A stretch of DNA of 64,000 nucleotides, from assembly GCA_965262715.1 (NCBI GenBank), contig OZ253553.1:2432001-2496000 (forward strand). The letters are read 5' to 3'. The translations under genes and the position numbers were made by a program. The stretch is from Bdellovibrionales bacterium. Lineage in GTDB: Bacteria > Bdellovibrionota > Bdellovibrionia > Bdellovibrionales > JAUICD01. Of this stretch, positions 2,085 to 11,726 are shown piece by piece. Within the stretch, counting starts at the first letter, position 1. Each line of letters opens with the position of its first letter. The notes below the pieces were generated by a model. It did not search any database. It saw only the letters and a program-made list of their open reading frames with translations, and was not told where the DNA came from.

Positions 2085-2801
2085 TTAATTGCTTGATTTC
2101 CAGTTTTCATGTCTTAAAGGCAAAGCATTGAGTTCATCTCTCAAATGTTTCCATGCTGGTATAACCCTATCCATAATAGATATAAATTGAGGCCCATGAT
2201 TGGGTATGAGCAAATGAGTCATTTCATGTGCTATCACGTATTCAACAAGTTCTATTGGCTTTTTAGCTAGTTCAGAATTGAGACGAATGCTCGATTGTTT
2301 AAAATGGCAACTCCCCCATCTTGTTTTCATCCTTTGTATATAAACCTTTTTAACTTTTACATGCATTATTTTTTCAAACTTTCTAATAACAGATGAGGCC
2401 AACGACCTCAATTCATTTCTATAAAATGTATTTAAAACCTGTTCTTTATCTTCTCTTGAAAAATGAGATTTTACACTCAATAAAAGTGTTTTATGTTGTA
2501 CATCTACAGATGGAGATTTTTGGGTTTCTAACACACTCAATAGATACCTTTTTCCCCATAGATAATGGCTTTCTCGATCTATAAACTCTCTAGGAGTTTC
2601 TCTCATTTGAGTTTTAAACTTATCTCTATTCTTTCGAATCCATAAAAGTTTTGAAATAGCAACCATTCTTATCTCATCGGATTTTATATGATAAGGTGCT
2701 GATATCCTAACTCTTCCATCTGGTGGTAAAATACTCAAATGAATGTTTTTAATATCTTTTTGTATGACATCAATATGGATATTACCTACTTCTATTTTCA
2801 T
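2085..2801 (-). CDS. M48/SprT-like (YgjP-type) zinc metallopeptidase, typically downstream of hsdR
   Basis: MKTRWGSC, YVIAHEMTHL (HExxH), NHGPQF motifs. Confidence 0.9.
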   Translation of the reverse strand: MKIEVGNIHIDVIQKDIKNIHLSILPPDGRVRISAPYHIKSDEIRMVAISKLLWIRKNRDKFKTQMRETPREFIDRESHYLWGKRYLLSVLETQKSPSVDVQHKTLLLSVKSHFSREDKEQVLNTFYRNELRSLASSVIRKFEKIMHVKVKKVYIQRMKTRWGSCHFKQSSIRLNSELAKKPIELVEYVIAHEMTHLLIPNHGPQFISIMDRVIPAWKHLRDELNALPLRHENWKSSN

Positions 2802-2827
2802 CTCAAAACCCCTTTCAAATATATCTT

Positions 2828-3493
2828 CTAATATTCCTTTTGTTCATAAATGATTTGAAATACTTTCTCAACTTCATCCCTATCAAGGACAATATCATAT
2901 ATGGCTTTCTTGACAACTTGTTCTTTTGCCTGATGCCCTTTCCATCCATCTGGAGCATTTGTTTTGACAGCTTCATGTATTTTGAGTGTCAGCTTTAAAT
3001 TCTTGTTGAGATTTTCATAGAGTACTTTTTTACCATAAGTGTCTAATTCTTTAGGCAAATCATCTTCATAACCTTTTTGAATCTTTTTTGCTAAGTTAGC
3101 AATCATTTTTAGAAAAGCTTCATATTCAAAGGCTTTGCTTTTACGATTTTTAATGATCTCATCTAAAATTTGAGACATGCGATCATAAAACTCAGGATTG
3201 TTTGCTCTTTCTGTAATGATCTTCTTACGAATATTGTTTGTAATAGTTTCAATGATGGCCTCTTGATTATTTTTTAGAGATGAAGGAAGAGTATTGATGG
3301 CCTCATCAACTCCAGAGGTCATAATCAAATCAAGAAGGGGTGTGTTATCAAGGTGAGAGACTGTTCTTGCTTGTGAAGACTCAATATAATTATCAATCAA
3401 ATGCCTCATATCAGCTTCGTATGCCTTAAGATCAATGGTTTCACCACTTGCATTTTTGATGGTTTCTCGTAATTGAATGTAATACTTGACTTG
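2828..3493 (-). pseudogene. hsdR: C-terminal fragment of type I restriction subunit R, fused in frame to a transposase N-terminus (ORF 2828..3835)
   Basis: IKNASGETIDLKAYEADMRHLIDNYI and NPEFYDRMSQILDEII resemble HsdR C-termini; nuclease and helicase motifs absent. Confidence 0.8.
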
Positions 3494-3883
3494 ATTTTTA
3501 ATAACCTGTGTATATACTTTGCCATTTCTTTTTTTTAATCCAAATACAATAGTTTTTCCGCTTGATCCTCTTCCACGAAGACCTCGAACTCTTTTAGCTC
3601 CAAAGTAACTTTCATCAATTTCAATTTCTCCTTTTGAAAAAATACTTTCTTTTTCACAAAACTGAGTGATCCTTATACGAAGCTTTTTTAAAATTCTGTT
3701 AATACAATTTCTACTTATACCGGAAAAATAAGCTATTTGCTGAGCTGTTAAATCTCCTGAAAAAAGCTTGATAACTTCTCTAAATTTCTTCTCAGAAATT
3801 CGGGAACGGATAAAATACCTGTTTTTCATAATCATAACAGTAAGTTAACTCTCCTCAAAGTCAACTTAAAGTGTCATGAACCT
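3494..3883 (-). mobile_element. Truncated IS1595-family element (left end plus transposase N-terminus)
   Basis: RSRISEKKFREVIKLF...GEIEIDESYFG...RGRGSSGKTIVFG...GKVYT; hsdM similarity stops at GGTTCATGACACTTTAAG (~3882-3865). Confidence 0.85.
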
Positions 3884-4276
3884 TAAATATTCATAAGCAT
3901 CTACAAGAAGGTCATCCCCATCTGCACGATTTTGACTAAAGTCACTGTTTTCAAATATAGCAATTAAGTTGGTCAGCTTATCGACCATTTCCTTCCCATT
4001 ACCAAGTTTATTTTCTCTAGCTAGAGGAGCAATGATCCTTTTATTGATTTGATCTCCAATATCTGATTTGCCCTTCAGTGCAATCATATCTTGAAAACTT
4101 GCTCCTGGTGGTATCTTAATCGGAGCATAAGGCTGATTTGCGTATTTATCACTAATGTACTTGATAAACAAAAGGACCAAAACATAGTCCTTATATTGAC
4201 TGGCATCCATTCCCCCACGAAGCTCATCACAACTAGACCATAAAGTCGAATAAAGTTCAGATTTTTTCAATGTCAT
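3866..4276 (-). pseudogene. hsdM: N-terminal fragment of type I R-M methyltransferase subunit M
   Basis: KKSELYSTLWSSCDELRGGMDASQYKDYVLVLLFIKYISDK; ends after DAYEYL; no SAM-binding or NPPF motif. Confidence 0.88.
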
Positions 4277-4278
4277 AG

Positions 4279-5760
4279 CTAAACTCCAACTGTCTGATTT
4301 GCTTCATTCATTAAATGAGATGTCTTATCTTTCTGTAATCCATTGGCTATCAATTGAACTTTTGTTTCTTTTTGTATTTGATGATTGACAGGTTTTAAAA
4401 TGGAATCAAATGACACAATTCCATTGCTTGATAAAATGGCTTCTCTACATTTTGTGGCAAAGATTTTATCTGATGGGTGCTCTTGCAAATGCTGTGAAAT
4501 ATAAAATAAATCTGATGTACAAACAAGAGCAATACTGTGTTGATTGGCTGTTTGAATGCACTTTTCAGTAAATTGATTTGACCTCTTGCTTGGCTGGTCA
4601 AGTCGATAGGCATTTCCAAAAAGCACACCTTTTGCAATATCTTCTGTATTATCCTTTCCATTATATTCTACTAAATTCGTTATCAATTGAGAAATTTTTT
4701 TTCTATTAACATCCTTGTTTTTACCTTCAACCTCTCCTAAACCAGTCCCTTCTTTTGATTTGAAAGTGACGTCAAATTCAGATTCTGCATCCCTATAGTT
4801 TTGAGCCTTAAATCCCATTAACTCTAAGCAATTTATCACGGCTTCTTCTAAAGGTTTTCCAGTTTCAAAAAGAAGTCTGTAAGGCATTTTTGCTTTTTCT
4901 AAATCTTTTTCCAGATCAGCTTTATCTTGACCCAGTTTTTCTATTTTGATGTCTATCTTTCCTATATTTTGTTTTATTTGAGAAACACCATCTATTTTAA
5001 ATTTGTCATGGCTAGACCAGTCAGGAGGAGGCGTTAAAGCACAGGAGCTTTTAAGTGTTTGATCTATTTGAATAATATGCTGGATCAAACGATTTGAGAG
5101 TTGATATGCTTTTTCATTGTAAGTATATTCGACAAGATCAGAATGTCTAAAATTGATTGCAGGTAGAATAACCAAGAAACCACCAGATGGAGTCTTAATG
5201 ATTCCTCCGAAGACCTCTGATCTTCTTTTTGGATCAAAGTTTTTTGGAACAAAATACACATCACCTCGGAAATGAGAAAAAGCTATTTCATAGTAAAAAT
5301 ATTTTTCGAAGTCATCCCATAGAGACTTTAAAGTAGCCTTTGTATTACTATATTTTTTGATTTCTTTTCCTGAAACAATACGAGGTTTTCCTAAAGGTAA
5401 AAAATTTAAAAAAGGATTAAAATATTCATACTGATTGCCATATCTACTAGATGCTGTTTTATAATAATAAAATTCTGGTGGTTTTTCGCAAAAAACAAAA
5501 ATAGTTTTCTGTTCTGACATGGCCTGCTGAAATTCAGATTCCCAATGTTTAATTTCATCTCGAAAAACTCTAGATTGATCTTCTGTCAATAGTGGCTTTC
5601 CTTCAAATGTTTGTTGAAAGGTATAATTAAAAAATTGTGGTGAAAATAAAATCACATCCCCATCCATCAGTGACTTTCTGTCACTTGATAAATAAGAACT
5701 TACTTGCCCATTTTTAAAAGGGAAATGCTCTATTCCCATACCTATTATCTGTTTATCCAA
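4279..5760 (-). CDS. Hypothetical protein with a central coiled coil and a C-terminal restriction-endonuclease-like domain
   Basis: LEEAVINCLELMGF...EFD...GEVEGK motif; stop codon 2 nt before the hsdM ATG. Confidence 0.55.
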   Translation of the reverse strand: MDKQIIGMGIEHFPFKNGQVSSYLSSDRKSLMDGDVILFSPQFFNYTFQQTFEGKPLLTEDQSRVFRDEIKHWESEFQQAMSEQKTIFVFCEKPPEFYYYKTASSRYGNQYEYFNPFLNFLPLGKPRIVSGKEIKKYSNTKATLKSLWDDFEKYFYYEIAFSHFRGDVYFVPKNFDPKRRSEVFGGIIKTPSGGFLVILPAINFRHSDLVEYTYNEKAYQLSNRLIQHIIQIDQTLKSSCALTPPPDWSSHDKFKIDGVSQIKQNIGKIDIKIEKLGQDKADLEKDLEKAKMPYRLLFETGKPLEEAVINCLELMGFKAQNYRDAESEFDVTFKSKEGTGLGEVEGKNKDVNRKKISQLITNLVEYNGKDNTEDIAKGVLFGNAYRLDQPSKRSNQFTEKCIQTANQHSIALVCTSDLFYISQHLQEHPSDKIFATKCREAILSSNGIVSFDSILKPVNHQIQKETKVQLIANGLQKDKTSHLMNEANQTVGV

Positions 5761-5952
5761 GATAATACCTCCTACACTTTCTTATCGAAATTACAAACTC
5801 CAAGAAAAGCCATATTGGCATAAAACTGACTCCTGTTCAACATATAAATCAAATGTACAAACTGCTCTATACTCCTAAATGATAACTGCTATGCAGCATA
5901 GAGGAACTATACCTATATGAGAGAGCCTTTTCACATAAGTTTGCCTTTCTGT

Positions 5953-6165
5953 CTCACTAAAAATGAACCAGCCTCTGTATCACTAAAATGCATCTCGTCT
6001 GTGTTTCCCTAAAAATAAACTGACCTCTGGTCATTTTTGGGCAGTTAGCCTGAAGACTTATGTCTTCAAGAAAATGCTAACTGCCTCAAAAATCCGTTTA
6101 TTTTTAGGAGGAAGATACTCTTCGTTTCTTTGCAAAATGTTAAGGAAAATTTTCTTTTATTATTT
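5953..6165 (-). repeat. Structured cassette A copy
   Basis: cctaaaaataaac...gtttatttttagg stem; inner TGAAGAC-ATAA-GTCTTCA on the minus strand. Confidence 0.85.
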
Positions 6166-6228
6166 CTTCTGCAAGGCAATCCGGAATCAGTTCTCGGAAA
6201 CAGAAACCAGTTTGCCAGAGTGCCAAAT

Positions 6229-6522
6229 TCATGTATTTTGACACAACTTATAGAGGAATGCCCCAAGTTTATCAGCTTCCTTTATTAATACTTGATGATT
6301 AATAAGAATGAGTATGGCTTGTGTTTCTCTTAAAGAACCTAAACTAATTTCGTAAAATTTCCTACGTTCCTTAGAACTAGATTTTGCAGATCCTTCAGCT
6401 AAATTGAGTACAATACTAAGCACAGCTCTTTGAAACTGATTTTTCATTGGCCCTTTTAGAGTTAATTTATTAGATTTATGATAGAACTGAATTGCTAATT
6501 GATAAGTCTTGAATTTTTGCAT
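6229..6522 (-). CDS. Four-helix-bundle protein (23S rRNA IVP / Avd-like family)
   Basis: QFQRAVLSIVLNLAEG...RKFYEISLGSLRE signature, 97 aa. Confidence 0.9.
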   Translation of the reverse strand: MQKFKTYQLAIQFYHKSNKLTLKGPMKNQFQRAVLSIVLNLAEGSAKSSSKERRKFYEISLGSLRETQAILILINHQVLIKEADKLGAFLYKLCQNT

Positions 6523-6717
6523 AAAAAAATAGAGGCATTTTCCCTAACATGTATGCAAAAAATGAGAAGTATCTCTTTACTAAAAATAAACAAATTTTTG
6601 AGGTAGTCAGCATTTTCTTGAAGATGTGAGTCTTCAGGCTGACTATCCAAAAATGGCCAGAGGCCAGTTTATTTTTAGTGATACAACTTGGGAGGTAAAA
6701 ATTATGCAAAAATTCAA
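6509..6717. repeat. Cassette A bounded by perfect 16-bp inverted repeats (6509-6524 / 6702-6717)
   Basis: ttgaatttttgcataa and ttatgcaaaaattcaa; GGAGGT at 6691-6696. Confidence 0.85.
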
Positions 6718-6792
6718 AATAAGCTTATTTATTACCAGTTTCCAGAAACCGGTTTCCCGGAAGCCATATCCCGGATGAATAAAACAGTGTTT

Positions 6793-7602
6793 TTAGTCTT
6801 TACCCGTCTTGATAGCTCGTCTTACAAGCTCTTTCACATAAGTCTGCCTTTCTGAACCGGAGAGGAGTTGTTCTATTCTATCGTATAGGCTTGAATCATT
6901 GATCAATGCTCCTAAAGTGCCCTGGCCTTTATCTATCTTTCTTAAAACAGAATTAAGGTAGTACAACGACTGTTTTAACTTTTTCTCCTCCTGTATATCT
7001 TTTGCCAGTACATTTAGAGAAGATATAAGTTCTGTAAGTCCCTTACTGCTTTCATTGAGGTTATGCATGATCTCAACGGCTTTATTGTTCGCATTTAAGC
7101 TTTTAACAAGAGTGGCTAATTCTTGCAAAACTACAAATAGGTTTTCTATCTTATCACCTTCTGAAGAAATAACAGAAAATATATCAACTTGTGGCTCATG
7201 AATTAAAAAATCACCATCCTGTAGAACCTTTCCACTACCTTCCGGGTTTATAGATACGAACTTATCACCTAAAACACCTTTTGTTTTGGTCTCAACCTTC
7301 GATCCTTCTTTTATTAGGTTTTGATAACGATTATCTATACCTAATTGAATGAGAACTTTATTTTCAGAAGGTAAAGGACTAACAGAACCTACATTTCCAA
7401 TAGTAACTCCTAATAACTGTACAAGACTGCCCGGTCCTAAGCCTTCAATAGAATCCATCTTGACCTGCAGTGTGTATCGGGTGCTAAAAAGAAAAGATCC
7501 TTCTCTTAATGAAAATAAACTGATGATAAATATAACAATTGCTACACTTACGAAAAGCCCTACCTTAATTTCTATATGTTTACCATAATCTTGATTAGAC
7601 AT
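6793..7602 (-). CDS. mlaD: MCE/MlaD family protein
   Basis: N-terminal TM helix, GL.PGS.V.L.GV.IG.V, GVLGDKFV. Confidence 0.9.
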   Translation of the reverse strand: MSNQDYGKHIEIKVGLFVSVAIVIFIISLFSLREGSFLFSTRYTLQVKMDSIEGLGPGSLVQLLGVTIGNVGSVSPLPSENKVLIQLGIDNRYQNLIKEGSKVETKTKGVLGDKFVSINPEGSGKVLQDGDFLIHEPQVDIFSVISSEGDKIENLFVVLQELATLVKSLNANNKAVEIMHNLNESSKGLTELISSLNVLAKDIQEEKKLKQSLYYLNSVLRKIDKGQGTLGALINDSSLYDRIEQLLSGSERQTYVKELVRRAIKTGKD

Positions 7603-8333
7603 TATACAACCTCTCCTTGAACAAACTTATGAATAATATGTTTTGAATTATTTTTTAAATCTTTCACTGTAATAATAGCCCCTATTTCACAATTAGAAAT
7701 CATAGCAACACGATCACAAATAGAAAAAACAGAAGACATGTCATGAGTCACTAAAATAGATGTAACACCAGTTTTTTTAAGATCCATTATTTCTCCTATT
7801 ATTGTTCTAGCATTAAATGGATCTAAACCTGCTGTGGGCTCATCATAAAGTATGATCTCAGGCTCCAAAATAAGAGCTCTGGCAAGCCCAACACGTTTTT
7901 GCATTCCTCCAGAAAGATGAGCCGGAAAAAGCTGTGCATTACCTTCTAAATGAAAATCTTTAAGTTTTTTATAGATAATCTCTGAGATTTCTTCTTCAGA
8001 GAGATGGGTATGTTCTCTTAAAGGATAAGCTAAATTTTCATAGACTGTCATAGAATCAAAAAGAGCTCCTCCTTGAAAAACATAAGCCACTTTTTTTCTT
8101 AACTCGATCATTTTATTTTCTTTAAGAGTTGTAACATCAAAGTTAATAACTTGGATTGTTCCTCTATCTGGAATTTCTAAACCTATGAGACTTCTTAAAA
8201 GAAAACTCTTACCTGTACCAGAGCCACCAATTAAACCAAGACATTCTCCTTCTCGCACTTCAAGGTTAACTCCTTCAAATACTGTTTTAGTGCCAAAGCT
8301 CTTATAAAGATCCTTTACTTTAATGATAGCCAT
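7602..8333 (-). CDS. mlaF: MlaF-type ABC ATPase
   Basis: GGSGTGKS, FQGGALFDSMTV, LSGGMQKRV, YDEPTAGLDP; ATG at 8333 preferred. Confidence 0.9.
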   Translation of the reverse strand: MAIIKVKDLYKSFGTKTVFEGVNLEVREGECLGLIGGSGTGKSFLLRSLIGLEIPDRGTIQVINFDVTTLKENKMIELRKKVAYVFQGGALFDSMTVYENLAYPLREHTHLSEEEISEIIYKKLKDFHLEGNAQLFPAHLSGGMQKRVGLARALILEPEIILYDEPTAGLDPFNARTIIGEIMDLKKTGVTSILVTHDMSSVFSICDRVAMISNCEIGAIITVKDLKNNSKHIIHKFVQGEVV

Positions 8334-9115
8334 AACTGGATCTCCCAAAAAAGTTTACTTAAAAAGAAATCCCCAACAAGAATCAACAGAGAGGATGTGA
8401 CCACACCCTTTGTTGTAGCAATACCAACTCCTTTTGTTCCTTTTCCCGTGTTTAATCCATAGTAACAAGATACAAATGCTACAATTAAAGCAAAAACAAA
8501 TGTTTTTAGAAAACCACTTAGAAAATCAAAAAAACTCACTGTCGCTGAAACATTTCTCATAAAAAATAAGGGATCTAATCCCAATTCAAATGCCCCTACT
8601 GTAATAGCCCCAATAAGACTAAAAACATTTGCGATAAGAGTCAGTAAAGGAAGTGCAATCGCACAAGCTATTACACGAGGAATCACAAGTCTTTTTATGG
8701 GTGAAGTTCCAAGTGCTTTGATGGCATCAACTTGTTGAGTGATCATCATAGAGCTTAATTCAGAGGAGATACCAGCACCTACACGAGCTGCAAACATTAA
8801 ACTTGTAAACACAGGCCCCATTTCCTTCACAATTGACATGGCCACCAAGTGAGGAACATAGAGCTTAGCCCCAAATTTCTCCAAGCCTAAGCCAAACTGC
8901 ATCGACATTACCATTCCTGTGGAAATAGTAGCAACTATAATCAATGCTAGAGATCTTGAACCAACATGATATATCTGATCTATTGTAAGTTTGAAATAAT
9001 AAGGAGGTCTAAAAAACTCCTTAATTGTAGTTATTATAAGCAGGCATGTGCCCCCTAAAAAATGAAATTTACTTAAAACAAAAGTGCCTAAAGAGGCTAC
9101 TAAAGAAGAAGTCAC
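8315..9115 (-). CDS. mlaE: MlaE-type ABC permease
   Basis: KEMGPV, ARVGAG, QQVDA, GVGIATTKGVV. Confidence 0.9.
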   Translation of the reverse strand: MTSSLVASLGTFVLSKFHFLGGTCLLIITTIKEFFRPPYYFKLTIDQIYHVGSRSLALIIVATISTGMVMSMQFGLGLEKFGAKLYVPHLVAMSIVKEMGPVFTSLMFAARVGAGISSELSSMMITQQVDAIKALGTSPIKRLVIPRVIACAIALPLLTLIANVFSLIGAITVGAFELGLDPLFFMRNVSATVSFFDFLSGFLKTFVFALIVAFVSCYYGLNTGKGTKGVGIATTKGVVTSSLLILVGDFFLSKLFWEIQLWLSLK

Positions 9116-9636
9116 TGAACCTTAAATCCATCAATAAAGCTACTAAAAGCATCTTTACTCTTATCAAAATGTTCTGTAAGACCAATAAAGCTTAGTGTAT
9201 AGCTACATGAGTTTTTCTTAAAAATGACAAATTCTAAATTCACCTTCACACCATCTAATTGACCTGATACAAAAATTCTTTCAGCTTGTCTGCTGTTGTA
9301 TTCCATACGTGTTCTTTTTAAAATCTTTCGATCTAAAAGCTCTGATGTTGATTTTTGTAGTATAGTCTCTAAATCAGGGTCTATTGATTCATTACAAATC
9401 GATTGATAAGATATAATATTTCCCGTCTCTTCATCAATCCATGCCTTATCTGCGCCAGCTTGTTGCGTCTCAAAAAAAGGAGATGAAGGCTCTTGATAAG
9501 AAACTGATTGTGACTTTTTAGTGTCTGGAGAAATTTTAAACGAAATACAAGCAGAACAAATCATCAATAAAAAAACACAAAGCCATAATGATCCAAAATA
9601 CCTATACCTATACATAGACCTCAAAAAAATATTCAT
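9112..9636 (-). CDS. Putative lipoprotein
   Basis: Hydrophobic N-terminus with CSAC lipobox-like motif; overlaps the mlaE start. Confidence 0.65.
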   Translation of the reverse strand: MNIFLRSMYRYRYFGSLWLCVFLLMICSACISFKISPDTKKSQSVSYQEPSSPFFETQQAGADKAWIDEETGNIISYQSICNESIDPDLETILQKSTSELLDRKILKRTRMEYNSRQAERIFVSGQLDGVKVNLEFVIFKKNSCSYTLSFIGLTEHFDKSKDAFSSFIDGFKVQ

Positions 9637-10215
9637 AACTTTTTAAATTCCTTTGTCCTTCTATCAATCGGATATATAAAAAAAGCATCAAATAGACGAA
9701 CGTTATAAAAAGTCAATAAAATATACCTACTAGAGTCCTGGTTTTATAACTCATATAGAAGTTGACTGGACGCACTATCCTCTCATCTCAGTTTAAGAAA
9801 TATGAAAATGCTTAAATACTTAGAGATACTAGGTCAATCATATAAATATAATTATGATACGAAATCACAGGCACAAAAGTTATAGCCGTTAAGTCAAAGA
9901 CATCTAAAATATATGCATGATACATGCATTCTACTGATTTTAATAAAGAAAACCCTAAATATGTAAAAAAATCAACACTTATTTTTTATTTGATCGAAAA
10001 GAACTCTAGGTGGTCAAACCAAAAAATGTTAAATAAGAAAATAAAGTTCTTCAGTTATAACAGTAACTTAAACTAAAAACCCTACCTATAAATGTCAGGA
10101 ATATAAAGATTTATTTGAAAGTCCATCATTCTAACCATATTGTCACTTTGCTTCAAAAATATTTTTTTTATAAATTAAGATTGCTCCTTTCAAAAAGAAT
10201 GCGTAAATCATTTGT

Positions 10216-10785
10216 ATGCAGACTCAAAATTTTCCTCCACAAGCCTATAGTAAAGAAACCATATCAGAAGCCTTCATGTGGCTACAATCTCAGCCTGATG
10301 AAATCAAGAAAAGAGCTACTCACACAGAAGCATTGCTTTCTCTTTATTTGAAAAACAAAAGCCAAAAGTATTGGGCTGCCAAAACAAATACCTCTATTAA
10401 CAATAGTGTGAATGATTTTAACGACCAACTCCAAGAAATAGCCTTAGAGGTATCTCCTAACCAAACTCAACCACACGCTAATGGAAATACCTTGATAACA
10501 GAGCCTGATTTTAATAACCCTCTATCTCATAGATTAAATGACCCTAGCCACTCTACAACCGTCAACTTCATCAACAAAAAAGAAGAAGGCCATACTTTAG
10601 ATACAAAACAAGATATAGAAGATATGCTAGATGAAAAAAGCTTAACTTCACTTCATAGAACAAAAGCAAAGTTCAATTTAAGCTCTAATAAAGAAGCTGC
10701 TCGCCTCTTAATCTCTTTAGGATTCGAACAGGTCAAATCACTTATGCCTGACAAGCCTGCTCAATCTGATTCAGAAAATCACTAA
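10216..10785 (+). CDS. Hypothetical protein
   Basis: 189-aa ORF co-oriented with prmC. Confidence 0.65.
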   Translation: MQTQNFPPQAYSKETISEAFMWLQSQPDEIKKRATHTEALLSLYLKNKSQKYWAAKTNTSINNSVNDFNDQLQEIALEVSPNQTQPHANGNTLITEPDFNNPLSHRLNDPSHSTTVNFINKKEEGHTLDTKQDIEDMLDEKSLTSLHRTKAKFNLSSNKEAARLLISLGFEQVKSLMPDKPAQSDSENH

Positions 10786-10892
10786 CTGTGAGAATATCAT
10801 CTTTTTTTCTAACATTTGTCCTTCTTATTTATCTTATAATGAAACATAAAATTTTTACTACAACCCTAAATTTCATCTAAAAAAGGTGAAAA

Positions 10893-11726
10893 ATGATAGA
10901 ACTACTGCGATCTCTCACCAAACAGCTTTTTATGTCTCCATCACCTCGAATAGATGCAGAGATTCTTTTAGCCTATGTTTTAAATGTACGAAGAGAAGAA
11001 CTTCTATGTTTAAATCACAAACTCACATCTAAAGAAAAAACTTTATTAGATAAGTGTCTTTCTAAAAGAAAAAAAGGACAACCCATCCAATATATCACTC
11101 AACATGTAGAGTTTTATGGAACTTCCTTTTATGTCAAAGAAGGAGTCTTTATTCCAAGACCTGAAACAGAAATATTAGTTACTTGGGTCCTAAATCATAT
11201 AAAGCCCCATAACAGATTGTTAGATATGGGAGCAGGTACAGGTTGTATTGGATTGACCTTAGCTCTGATAAGATCTGACATCTATATATATGCTTGGGAA
11301 AAATCATCTGTTGCACTTGATGCCCTGCGTCGAAATTATCAAAAGAAAAAATCTCCTCCAAACTATAGTTTTGAATCTTTTGATATCACCTGTAATGCAA
11401 TAAAAGCAAATCACCAAAAAAAATATAACATAGTAGTATCTAATCCTCCTTATATTGGACGTTCTGATCAACATATTGATCCTCTTGTCAAAAAACATGA
11501 ACCCCACTTGGCATTATTTTCCGGGCCAACTGGATGTGAATGTTTGGATAGCTGGTCTCGTATTGCTTATGCTGTTCTTGTAAAAAATGGAAGGATTTGT
11601 TTTGAGATAGGATTTCAACAAGCTCTTCACGCTATAGAAATTTTTCAAAAAAATGGTTTTGTAGATATTAAAATCATCAAAGATAGTGCTGGATTGAATC
11701 GAATCATTGTAGCAAAAAAGACATAA
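10893..11726 (+). CDS. prmC: Release factor glutamine methyltransferase
   Basis: IPRPETE, DMGAGTGCI, SNPPY, EP.LAL. Confidence 0.95.
   Translation: MIELLRSLTKQLFMSPSPRIDAEILLAYVLNVRREELLCLNHKLTSKEKTLLDKCLSKRKKGQPIQYITQHVEFYGTSFYVKEGVFIPRPETEILVTWVLNHIKPHNRLLDMGAGTGCIGLTLALIRSDIYIYAWEKSSVALDALRRNYQKKKSPPNYSFESFDITCNAIKANHQKKYNIVVSNPPYIGRSDQHIDPLVKKHEPHLALFSGPTGCECLDSWSRIAYAVLVKNGRICFEIGFQQALHAIEIFQKNGFVDIKIIKDSAGLNRIIVAKKT

Follow-up and report, generated by a model that had tools for sequence, protein, structure and literature searches.

The four-helix-bundle gene at positions 6229 to 6522 of the window, as we call the whole 64,000-nucleotide stretch of Bdellovibrionales DNA analysed here, is read as a likely decayed and likely untranslated copy of a multicopy element, whose leader palindrome has taken up an inserted repeat and lost its ribosome site, and whose middle would flip only occasionally, likely by template switching. 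We give this reading a probability of about 0.7. A sequence-only reading had proposed that inversion of the segment between two perfect repeats turns the gene ON and OFF; a programmed switch is not supported at this locus.

A repeat scan of positions 3000-11000 found the perfect 16-bp inverted repeat at 6509-6524 and 6702-6717, with 177 nt between its arms, and both arms carry the ATG and first codons of the gene, as had been described before. The locus is composed of the following features.

5950..6148, plus strand: second copy of cassette A (core 6002-6148) with extra partial end units, in the orientation opposite to the first copy
6166..6228, minus strand: downstream flank made of short CCGG-rich units
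6229..6522, minus strand: four-helix-bundle gene, 97 aa, PF05635 / TIGR02436, with an intact frame and no Shine-Dalgarno (SD) sequence
6509..6524, minus strand: 3' arm of the leader palindrome (start and first codons; SD part gone)
6525..6538, minus strand: junction remnant, where alignments show about 22 nt including the SD to be absent that are kept at 2507775 of the same genome (G000)
6539..6686, minus strand: cassette A, a structured interspersed repeat of about 150 bp, in the palindrome head
6690..6719, minus strand: 5' arm of the leader palindrome (anti-start and anti-SD), whose plus-strand reading is the 'opposite RBS + MQKFK'
6704..6778, plus strand: 24-aa ORF that resembles the four-helix gene over five codons only
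6718..6790, minus strand: upstream flank, again of short CCGG-rich units, whose sequence is complementary to that of the downstream flank
6793..7602, minus strand: mlaD, the host gene upstream, in the same direction as the four-helix gene

The ATG of the gene lies inside the left arm and is preceded by CCTCTATTTTTTT, the stretch before it being AT-rich. As assembled, its best anti-SD pairing reaches -3.3 kcal/mol, against -7.3 to -10.7 kcal/mol in eight of nine paralogs and -4.7 kcal/mol in one, in agreement with the earlier view that the gene has no RBS; likewise, the opposite copy of the start leads to the 24-aa peptide only, with an ORF from 6704. The equation of the whole 177-bp interval with cassette A holds for the core (about 6539-6686), while 6690-6701 are the inner 5' arm and 6525-6538 the junction remnant. 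Reversal of the segment in silico places an SD of -11.5 kcal/mol with 6-nt spacing before the gene, as foreseen, and removes the anti-SD arm; the start region is predicted to be paired to the same extent both ways (0.31 unpaired in the assembled and 0.32 in the reversed leader).

The two flanks form a predicted duplex of -42.4 kcal/mol, against -25.5 ± 4.3 for shuffled sequences, none of 500 being as good. The cassette copy at 6002-6150 matches the one between the arms at 81% in inverted orientation. mlaD is the likely source of read-through transcription into the four-helix gene, and in genome G001 mlaD is not followed by a four-helix gene. The number of sigma-70-like sites around the locus is that expected by chance (4 against 4.5), and no rRNA match was found in window 5500-7200. 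The 3' end of mlaD has a 28-nt duplicate (window 5924-5951 and 6827-6854) that occurs nowhere else in the genome; the duplicate starts immediately where the left cassette copy ends and resembles local duplications in cassette arrays. Farther to the left, window 2085-5760 is a decayed type I restriction-modification region with a YgjP-like gene, an hsdM fragment, an ORF to which part of an IS1595 transposase is fused, and a further ORF of 493 aa that matches nothing in Pfam or NCBIfam.

The protein scores 60.5 bits against PF05635 (cut-off 33.8) and 59.6 against TIGR02436 (cut-off 24). Its predicted model has a pLDDT of 96.6 and four helices, with 2GSC as the best fold match (TM 0.88) and 2RLD next to it, and Avd (4DWL) is distant (TM 0.56, E 0.6). 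Standalone PF05635 genes occur in 60 of 151 genomes of the order, and we know of no role for them. G000 itself holds about 30 copies and fragments of the four-helix gene, 32 gene loci having entered the cassette survey. The window ORF is intact, with a dN/dS to its paralogs of 0.06-0.13, and its own branch carries 17 synonymous and 8 nonsynonymous changes, so that the gene has been under selection for most of its history. Either the SD was therefore lost recently or the gene is still weakly made; as judged from these substitution patterns, purifying selection counts against a long-standing silence.

Some paralogs are passengers in non-autonomous terminal-repeat elements of two types (G000 922773-923754, 2560605-2561250 and 320592-321134; 401172-401700, 1503952-1504484 and 2507423-2508121). 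One type shares its ends and 8-bp target duplications with an element at 2850675-2851573, which we take to be of the IS1595 family, and the other has different 16-bp ends; profile searches also gave matches to PF12762 and PF01797. Neither type of terminal repeat is present at the window copy. At C13, C15, C6 and C12 of G004, the gene is split near codon 47-51 by short inserts with the reading frame still open.

Cassette A is not special to this locus, and its distribution does not support the suggestion that it is an RNA partner of the gene. With a profile made of 15 different full-length copies, nhmmer gave 447 hits in 219 clusters of the genome, seven of the hits in the window. The cassette folds strongly (z -5.4 and -6.0), measures about 150 bp, and occurs as intergenic copies and in tandem arrays, lying within 60 bp downstream of 6 of 38 tRNA/tmRNA calls. 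Rfam returned two weak matches far below the gathering score and none for cassette A. Inverted repeats of at least 16 bp flank only 1 of 319 full cassette copies, and the genome has only three exact copies of the 16-mer, each at the start of a member of the four-helix gene family. The repeat thus belongs to the gene and not to the cassette, which disposes of the 16-mer as a MITE terminus.

The cassette is also present in G001, is sparse in G004, and gave no match in G025, G142 and G031, which hold 10-12 four-helix gene matches each. Within G000, 199 of the 219 clusters have no four-helix gene within 300 bp; conversely, 19 of the 32 gene loci have a cassette within that distance, compared with 9.7% of random sites (a figure uncorrected for intergenic bias), and all 15 four-helix loci fetched from G001 carry cassette copies. 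None was found at the gene loci of G004 or of genomes other than G000 and G001. Insertions recur at two places of the four-helix gene in G000 and G001, the leader and the vicinity of codon 65, and they disrupt the gene. The interruptions near codon 65-72 were seen at G000 923191-923634, 818150-818609 and 320592-321134 and at L033, L035, L039 and L041 of G001.

The arms of the palindrome are explained by the leaders of intact paralogs. In these, an upstream arm is complementary to the SD and first codons and forms a predicted leader hairpin, so that its other-strand reading must resemble SD + ATG + MQKFK. Among 47 gene starts of G000, G001 and G004, 28 have an arm that can pair with the opening 16 nt of the CDS at 13 or more positions, and this arm mirrors changes at +4 (codon 2) in 21 of the 28 and at +12 (codon 4) in 25. 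Arm sequences vary freely among loci, each following the first codons of its own gene. Of 150 control ORF starts, 1 is flanked by an inverted repeat of at least 16 bp. The initiation region is mostly paired in nine paralogs, with 0.07-0.26 predicted unpaired. All G001 leaders with an intact head have one orientation only.

The sister locus at G000 2507775 has the cassette at the same junction and in the same orientation, with the RBS intact. The window cassette is 94% identical to 2507583-2507739, its best match in the genome (next best 86-90%), and in alignment the window copy is without the approximately 22 nt, SD included, that are present at 2507775. It is because of this loss that the two sides of the window palindrome differ in their SD. 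A cassette lies between the arms and the SD is lost also at G000 1273357 and 2870518 and at L037 and L039 of G001; comparable copies with a cassette in the leader are truncated. The SD-less state is common to at least one other strain (P0002). The cassettes are 94% alike where the genes are about 80% alike, and since genes and leaders have no common tree, parts were probably exchanged between copies.

The probable origin of the arm is indicated by genes of other Bdellovibrionota. Among 175 non-redundant four-helix genes with 220 nt upstream, picked by their likeness to the query and including non-independent kin, 85 are head-to-head twins about 100 bp apart, under 25 genome labels. A perfect inverted repeat of at least 16 bp is present in 78 of these 85 twins (median 31), compared with 7 of 90 solo genes and 1 of 150 control starts. 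The twin partners are usually distinct paralogs. The 56 neighbouring ORFs at 29 twin loci included no recombinase or transposase and are unrelated host genes. In a tree of 147 rows and 98 columns, the G000/G001/G004 clade has a support of 96 and falls within twin genes (93, 95), and most solos devoid of an inverted repeat form a separate clade. The spacer of the twin L068, which has an eroding 77-aa partner, aligns with an empty G000 leader.

At the window locus, the partner is reduced to an SD and five codons, so that it holds no two-gene twin; as the twin layout is found at 85 genes elsewhere and is absent here, this locus is a derived solo form. Given twins that share a palindromic spacer, the 'opposite RBS + MQKFK' is likely a vestige, and the 5' arm of the window leader as a whole may, by the same sequence comparisons, likewise be taken as the likely remains of a lost divergent twin gene. 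At this very locus, a vestige and an arm extended by template switching cannot be told apart.

Two further observations concern the arrangement of twins: L065 has two twin cassettes in tandem, giving four genes at one locus, and at L092 both twins are the same paralog; the centre of the palindrome of L108 is deleted relative to L109. The upstream regions of solos devoid of an inverted repeat show TTGC(A/T) in 26 of 43 cases, compared with 7 and 10 in controls, and in about ten of them the distance from the motif to an SD-less ATG is exactly 13-14 nt, G's being frequent ten bases upstream; the genes examined include L150, L154-L159, L167, L181, L223, L190, L219 and L241. When compared with the sigma-54 consensus, these solos possibly have, from their sequences, sigma-54-type promoters with leaderless messages. 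The twin head was also tried as a promoter of this type with a matrix derived from the same class of solos; the best matches were scattered along the twin spacers and the idea was unsupported.

The middle of the palindrome has indeed been inverted in the history of the family, as the sequence-only reading supposed it could be. Of seven such leaders in G000 in which both arms can be read, two have a reversed middle, at 2497759 with an empty head and at 1985913 with a cassette (alignment score 108 reversed and -4 forward). Their perfect arms, of 29 and 25 bp, are the longest, compared with 9-18 at the other starts of G000 and its relatives, and the two loci are not sisters. In both, bases of the 5' arm appear in the coding start, and both arms are homogenised, which is not the outcome of a reciprocal exchange. 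Twin heads, oriented by gene type, are also reversed within G031 (L097/L099, with identical heads and one protein identical) and within G025 (L203 as opposed to L187/L183, with an identical head), G033 being a weaker case; the head is the same way round in L085/L088, G097, G115 and L117/L125 of G031. Over 39 gene pairs, which are non-independent, 16 are the same, 14 flipped and 9 undecided. Among candidates set aside, L091/L092 was dropped since L092 has two like genes, L080/L082 of G035 is ambiguous and L107/L110 of G034 falls below the identity cut.

The G000 flips lie on a single contig, and flips in short-read bins could partly be assembly errors across the long arms. Homogenised arms with an inverted spacer are the published signature of template switching (PMC8604942, PMC8794818). 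The flipped copies, with perfected arms and no recombinase beside them, are as template switching predicts, and on this comparative ground they are likely to have arisen by replication errors of this recombinase-free kind. The flipped paralogs keep an SD and ATG before the gene in either orientation, so that the flip is not an ON/OFF device in them.

We propose the following course of events, in which the present states can be read from the copies themselves. The ancestor, as the tree and the architecture suggest, would have been a head-to-head twin with a palindromic spacer bearing SD + ATG on each strand. The three genomes G000, G001 and G004 no longer have the partner, whose SD and first codons would persist as the 5' arm of the hairpin, predicted to cover the initiation region of the remaining gene. 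Cassette A would then have entered the hairpin head, where it sits at the same junction in the window, at 2507775 and at 1985913. The window copy, as aligned, lost the 22 nt or so with the SD, presumably later, and in some paralogs the head was reversed and the arms made identical, probably by template switching. A flip at the window locus would accidentally bring the vestigial SD in front of the gene, and none was seen. Since the trees are short (fewer than 100 columns, many open forks) and parts were exchanged, the order of these events is insecure.

A rival reading holds that template switching, with no recombinase, flips the window locus often enough for selection to keep an OFF allele that the vestigial SD can turn ON. 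The SD gained on reversal, the paralog at 1985913 with its cassette in exactly that orientation, the recent flips at L097/L099 and at L203 versus L187/L183, and the purifying selection on the ORF all speak for it. Against it stand the short arms (16 bp, 177 nt apart), the equal pairing of the initiation region both ways, the single orientation of G001 intact-head leaders, and the orientation of the locus itself. Logan contig pieces 6082-6623 and 6640-7700 from runs X1 and X2 (one sample, possibly the one from which the assembly was made) cover both arms in the assembled orientation; X5, from another study, covers the right arm and extends 16 nt past the left, and X6 covers the left arm. No strand-changing joint was present among the contig joints listed for these four runs (three samples, depth 2-8x). 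Contigs drop minority alleles, and at this depth a minority flip could have been missed. P0002, a strain with one amino-acid difference, has the cassette in the assembled orientation and no SD. A pattern scan of metagenome contigs, in a collection that probably lacks the organism, gave no match for the reversed-junction probe and one unrelated match for the gene start. With one orientation in the contigs and P0002, an asymmetry due to a 22-nt loss and paralogs that are equipped both ways, we regard such a phase switch as unlikely. The wider proposal, that twin cassettes are recombinase-free invertible elements whose heads flip frequently and whose polarity sets the expressed paralog, the flip of solos being an OFF-to-ON ribosome-site switch, is held to be similarly doubtful.

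In X6, one short contig (depth 3.1, with a 40-nt side) joins 6224 to 6791, skipping the gene and the cassette, which is possibly an empty site or a deletion between the flanks. A loose end of X5 at 6715 maps off the stretch.

The idea that the four-helix protein binds cassette A and promotes its spread, the two making up a selfish RNA-plus-protein element, is consistent with the enrichment of cassettes at gene loci of G000 and G001, with the recurrent insertions in the leader and near codon 65, and with the placement of Avd in the same broad family (PMC10053308). It is nevertheless improbable, as most cassette clusters stand alone, the G004 loci and those of other genomes have no cassette, G031, G025 and G142 have the gene and not the repeat, the insertions disrupt the gene, and no reverse transcriptase (RT) is linked. 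Indeed, the three RT matches in the genome all lie outside the window, and the stretches fetched hold no second ORF of at least 90 aa. The RT loci of G000 (L250, L252, L251) comprise two related RT genes, one internally deleted and both presumably group II intron-like, as well as an RT of 590 aa whose N-terminal region is long.

It is very unlikely that the gene is expressed as assembled, with no SD, from mlaD read-through, the repeat acting as an attenuating hairpin: the intact ORF, its low dN/dS, the AT-rich stretch before the ATG and a T-run length in P0002 that puts upstream cassette sequence in frame would suit this, but the 5' arm is predicted to pair with the start codon, and truncation is seen in comparable copies that have a cassette in the leader.

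Searches for resolvase, tyrosine recombinase and RT families gave no match in the window, which bears out the earlier statement that it holds no recombinase, and IS110 was not found in the genome. Elsewhere in G000, a 185-aa tyrosine recombinase and a 3' fragment of a four-helix gene are about 660 nt apart. That the locus is a classical inverton, on which a site-specific recombinase acts in trans, is very unlikely: the genome has two serine and two tyrosine recombinase matches, and 16-bp perfect arms around a 177-bp spacer are within inverton size (10.1101/2023.03.11.532203), but the arms follow each gene's first codons and offer no fixed binding site, flipped copies are homogenised in both arms, and no recombinase lies in the window or beside the 29 twin loci, though one might act from elsewhere.

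The reading as a decayed copy places the locus among several known systems. The ORFs of 23S rRNA intervening sequences and standalone four-helix proteins (Coxiella S23p, Xcc0516 2GSC, BT_0352 2RLD) have the same family and fold as the window protein. The flanks of the window gene are complementary, intervening sequences having complementary termini that RNase III cuts. A poor or labile initiation region, as at the window gene, is reported for Coxiella S23p (PMC4990558). Unlike these intervening sequences, the window gene lies outside rRNA, behind mlaD, has about 30 dispersed intergenic copies and possesses a palindromic leader that probably derives from a divergent twin. Avd of diversity-generating retroelements has a distant likeness in fold only, and here no RT is beside the gene. 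We liken cassette A to REP/REPIN-like and MITE-like repeats, as it is a folded unit of about 150 bp with hundreds of intergenic copies. Unlike REP/RAYT systems, no RAYT (NF047646) was found with it in the one genome searched, which is 92.7% complete, and the single IS200-like Y1 transposase locus (L001) has no cassette beside it.

Invertase-driven invertons of the PhaseFinder/PhaVa type share with the window locus short inverted repeats around a few hundred bases and an orientation that could alter expression; they differ in that here the arm sequence is not fixed, no recombinase is linked and one orientation was seen (contigs, 2-8x). Template-switch (quasi-palindrome) inversion shares with the flipped paralogs homogenised arms, a reversed spacer and no recombinase. 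Loop inversions are reported to be rare in rRNA and yeast genes (PMC8604942, PMC8794818); unlike published template switching, the inversions recur here in a multicopy element and reach 330 nt (1985913). In open-licence PMC and bioRxiv, no published description was found of twin genes of this family or of their flipping, and the flipping of the palindrome head and the likely solo vestige of a twin are new here.

The window locus itself is probably debris, and it illustrates how, in screens for invertons, a leader hairpin that has been interrupted can be taken for a switch. The multicopy twin-gene cassette, devoid of a recombinase and with heads reversed between near-identical paralogs, would be a system in which to measure template-switch inversion in bacteria, and one in which it may be asked how four-helix genes spread and are silenced.
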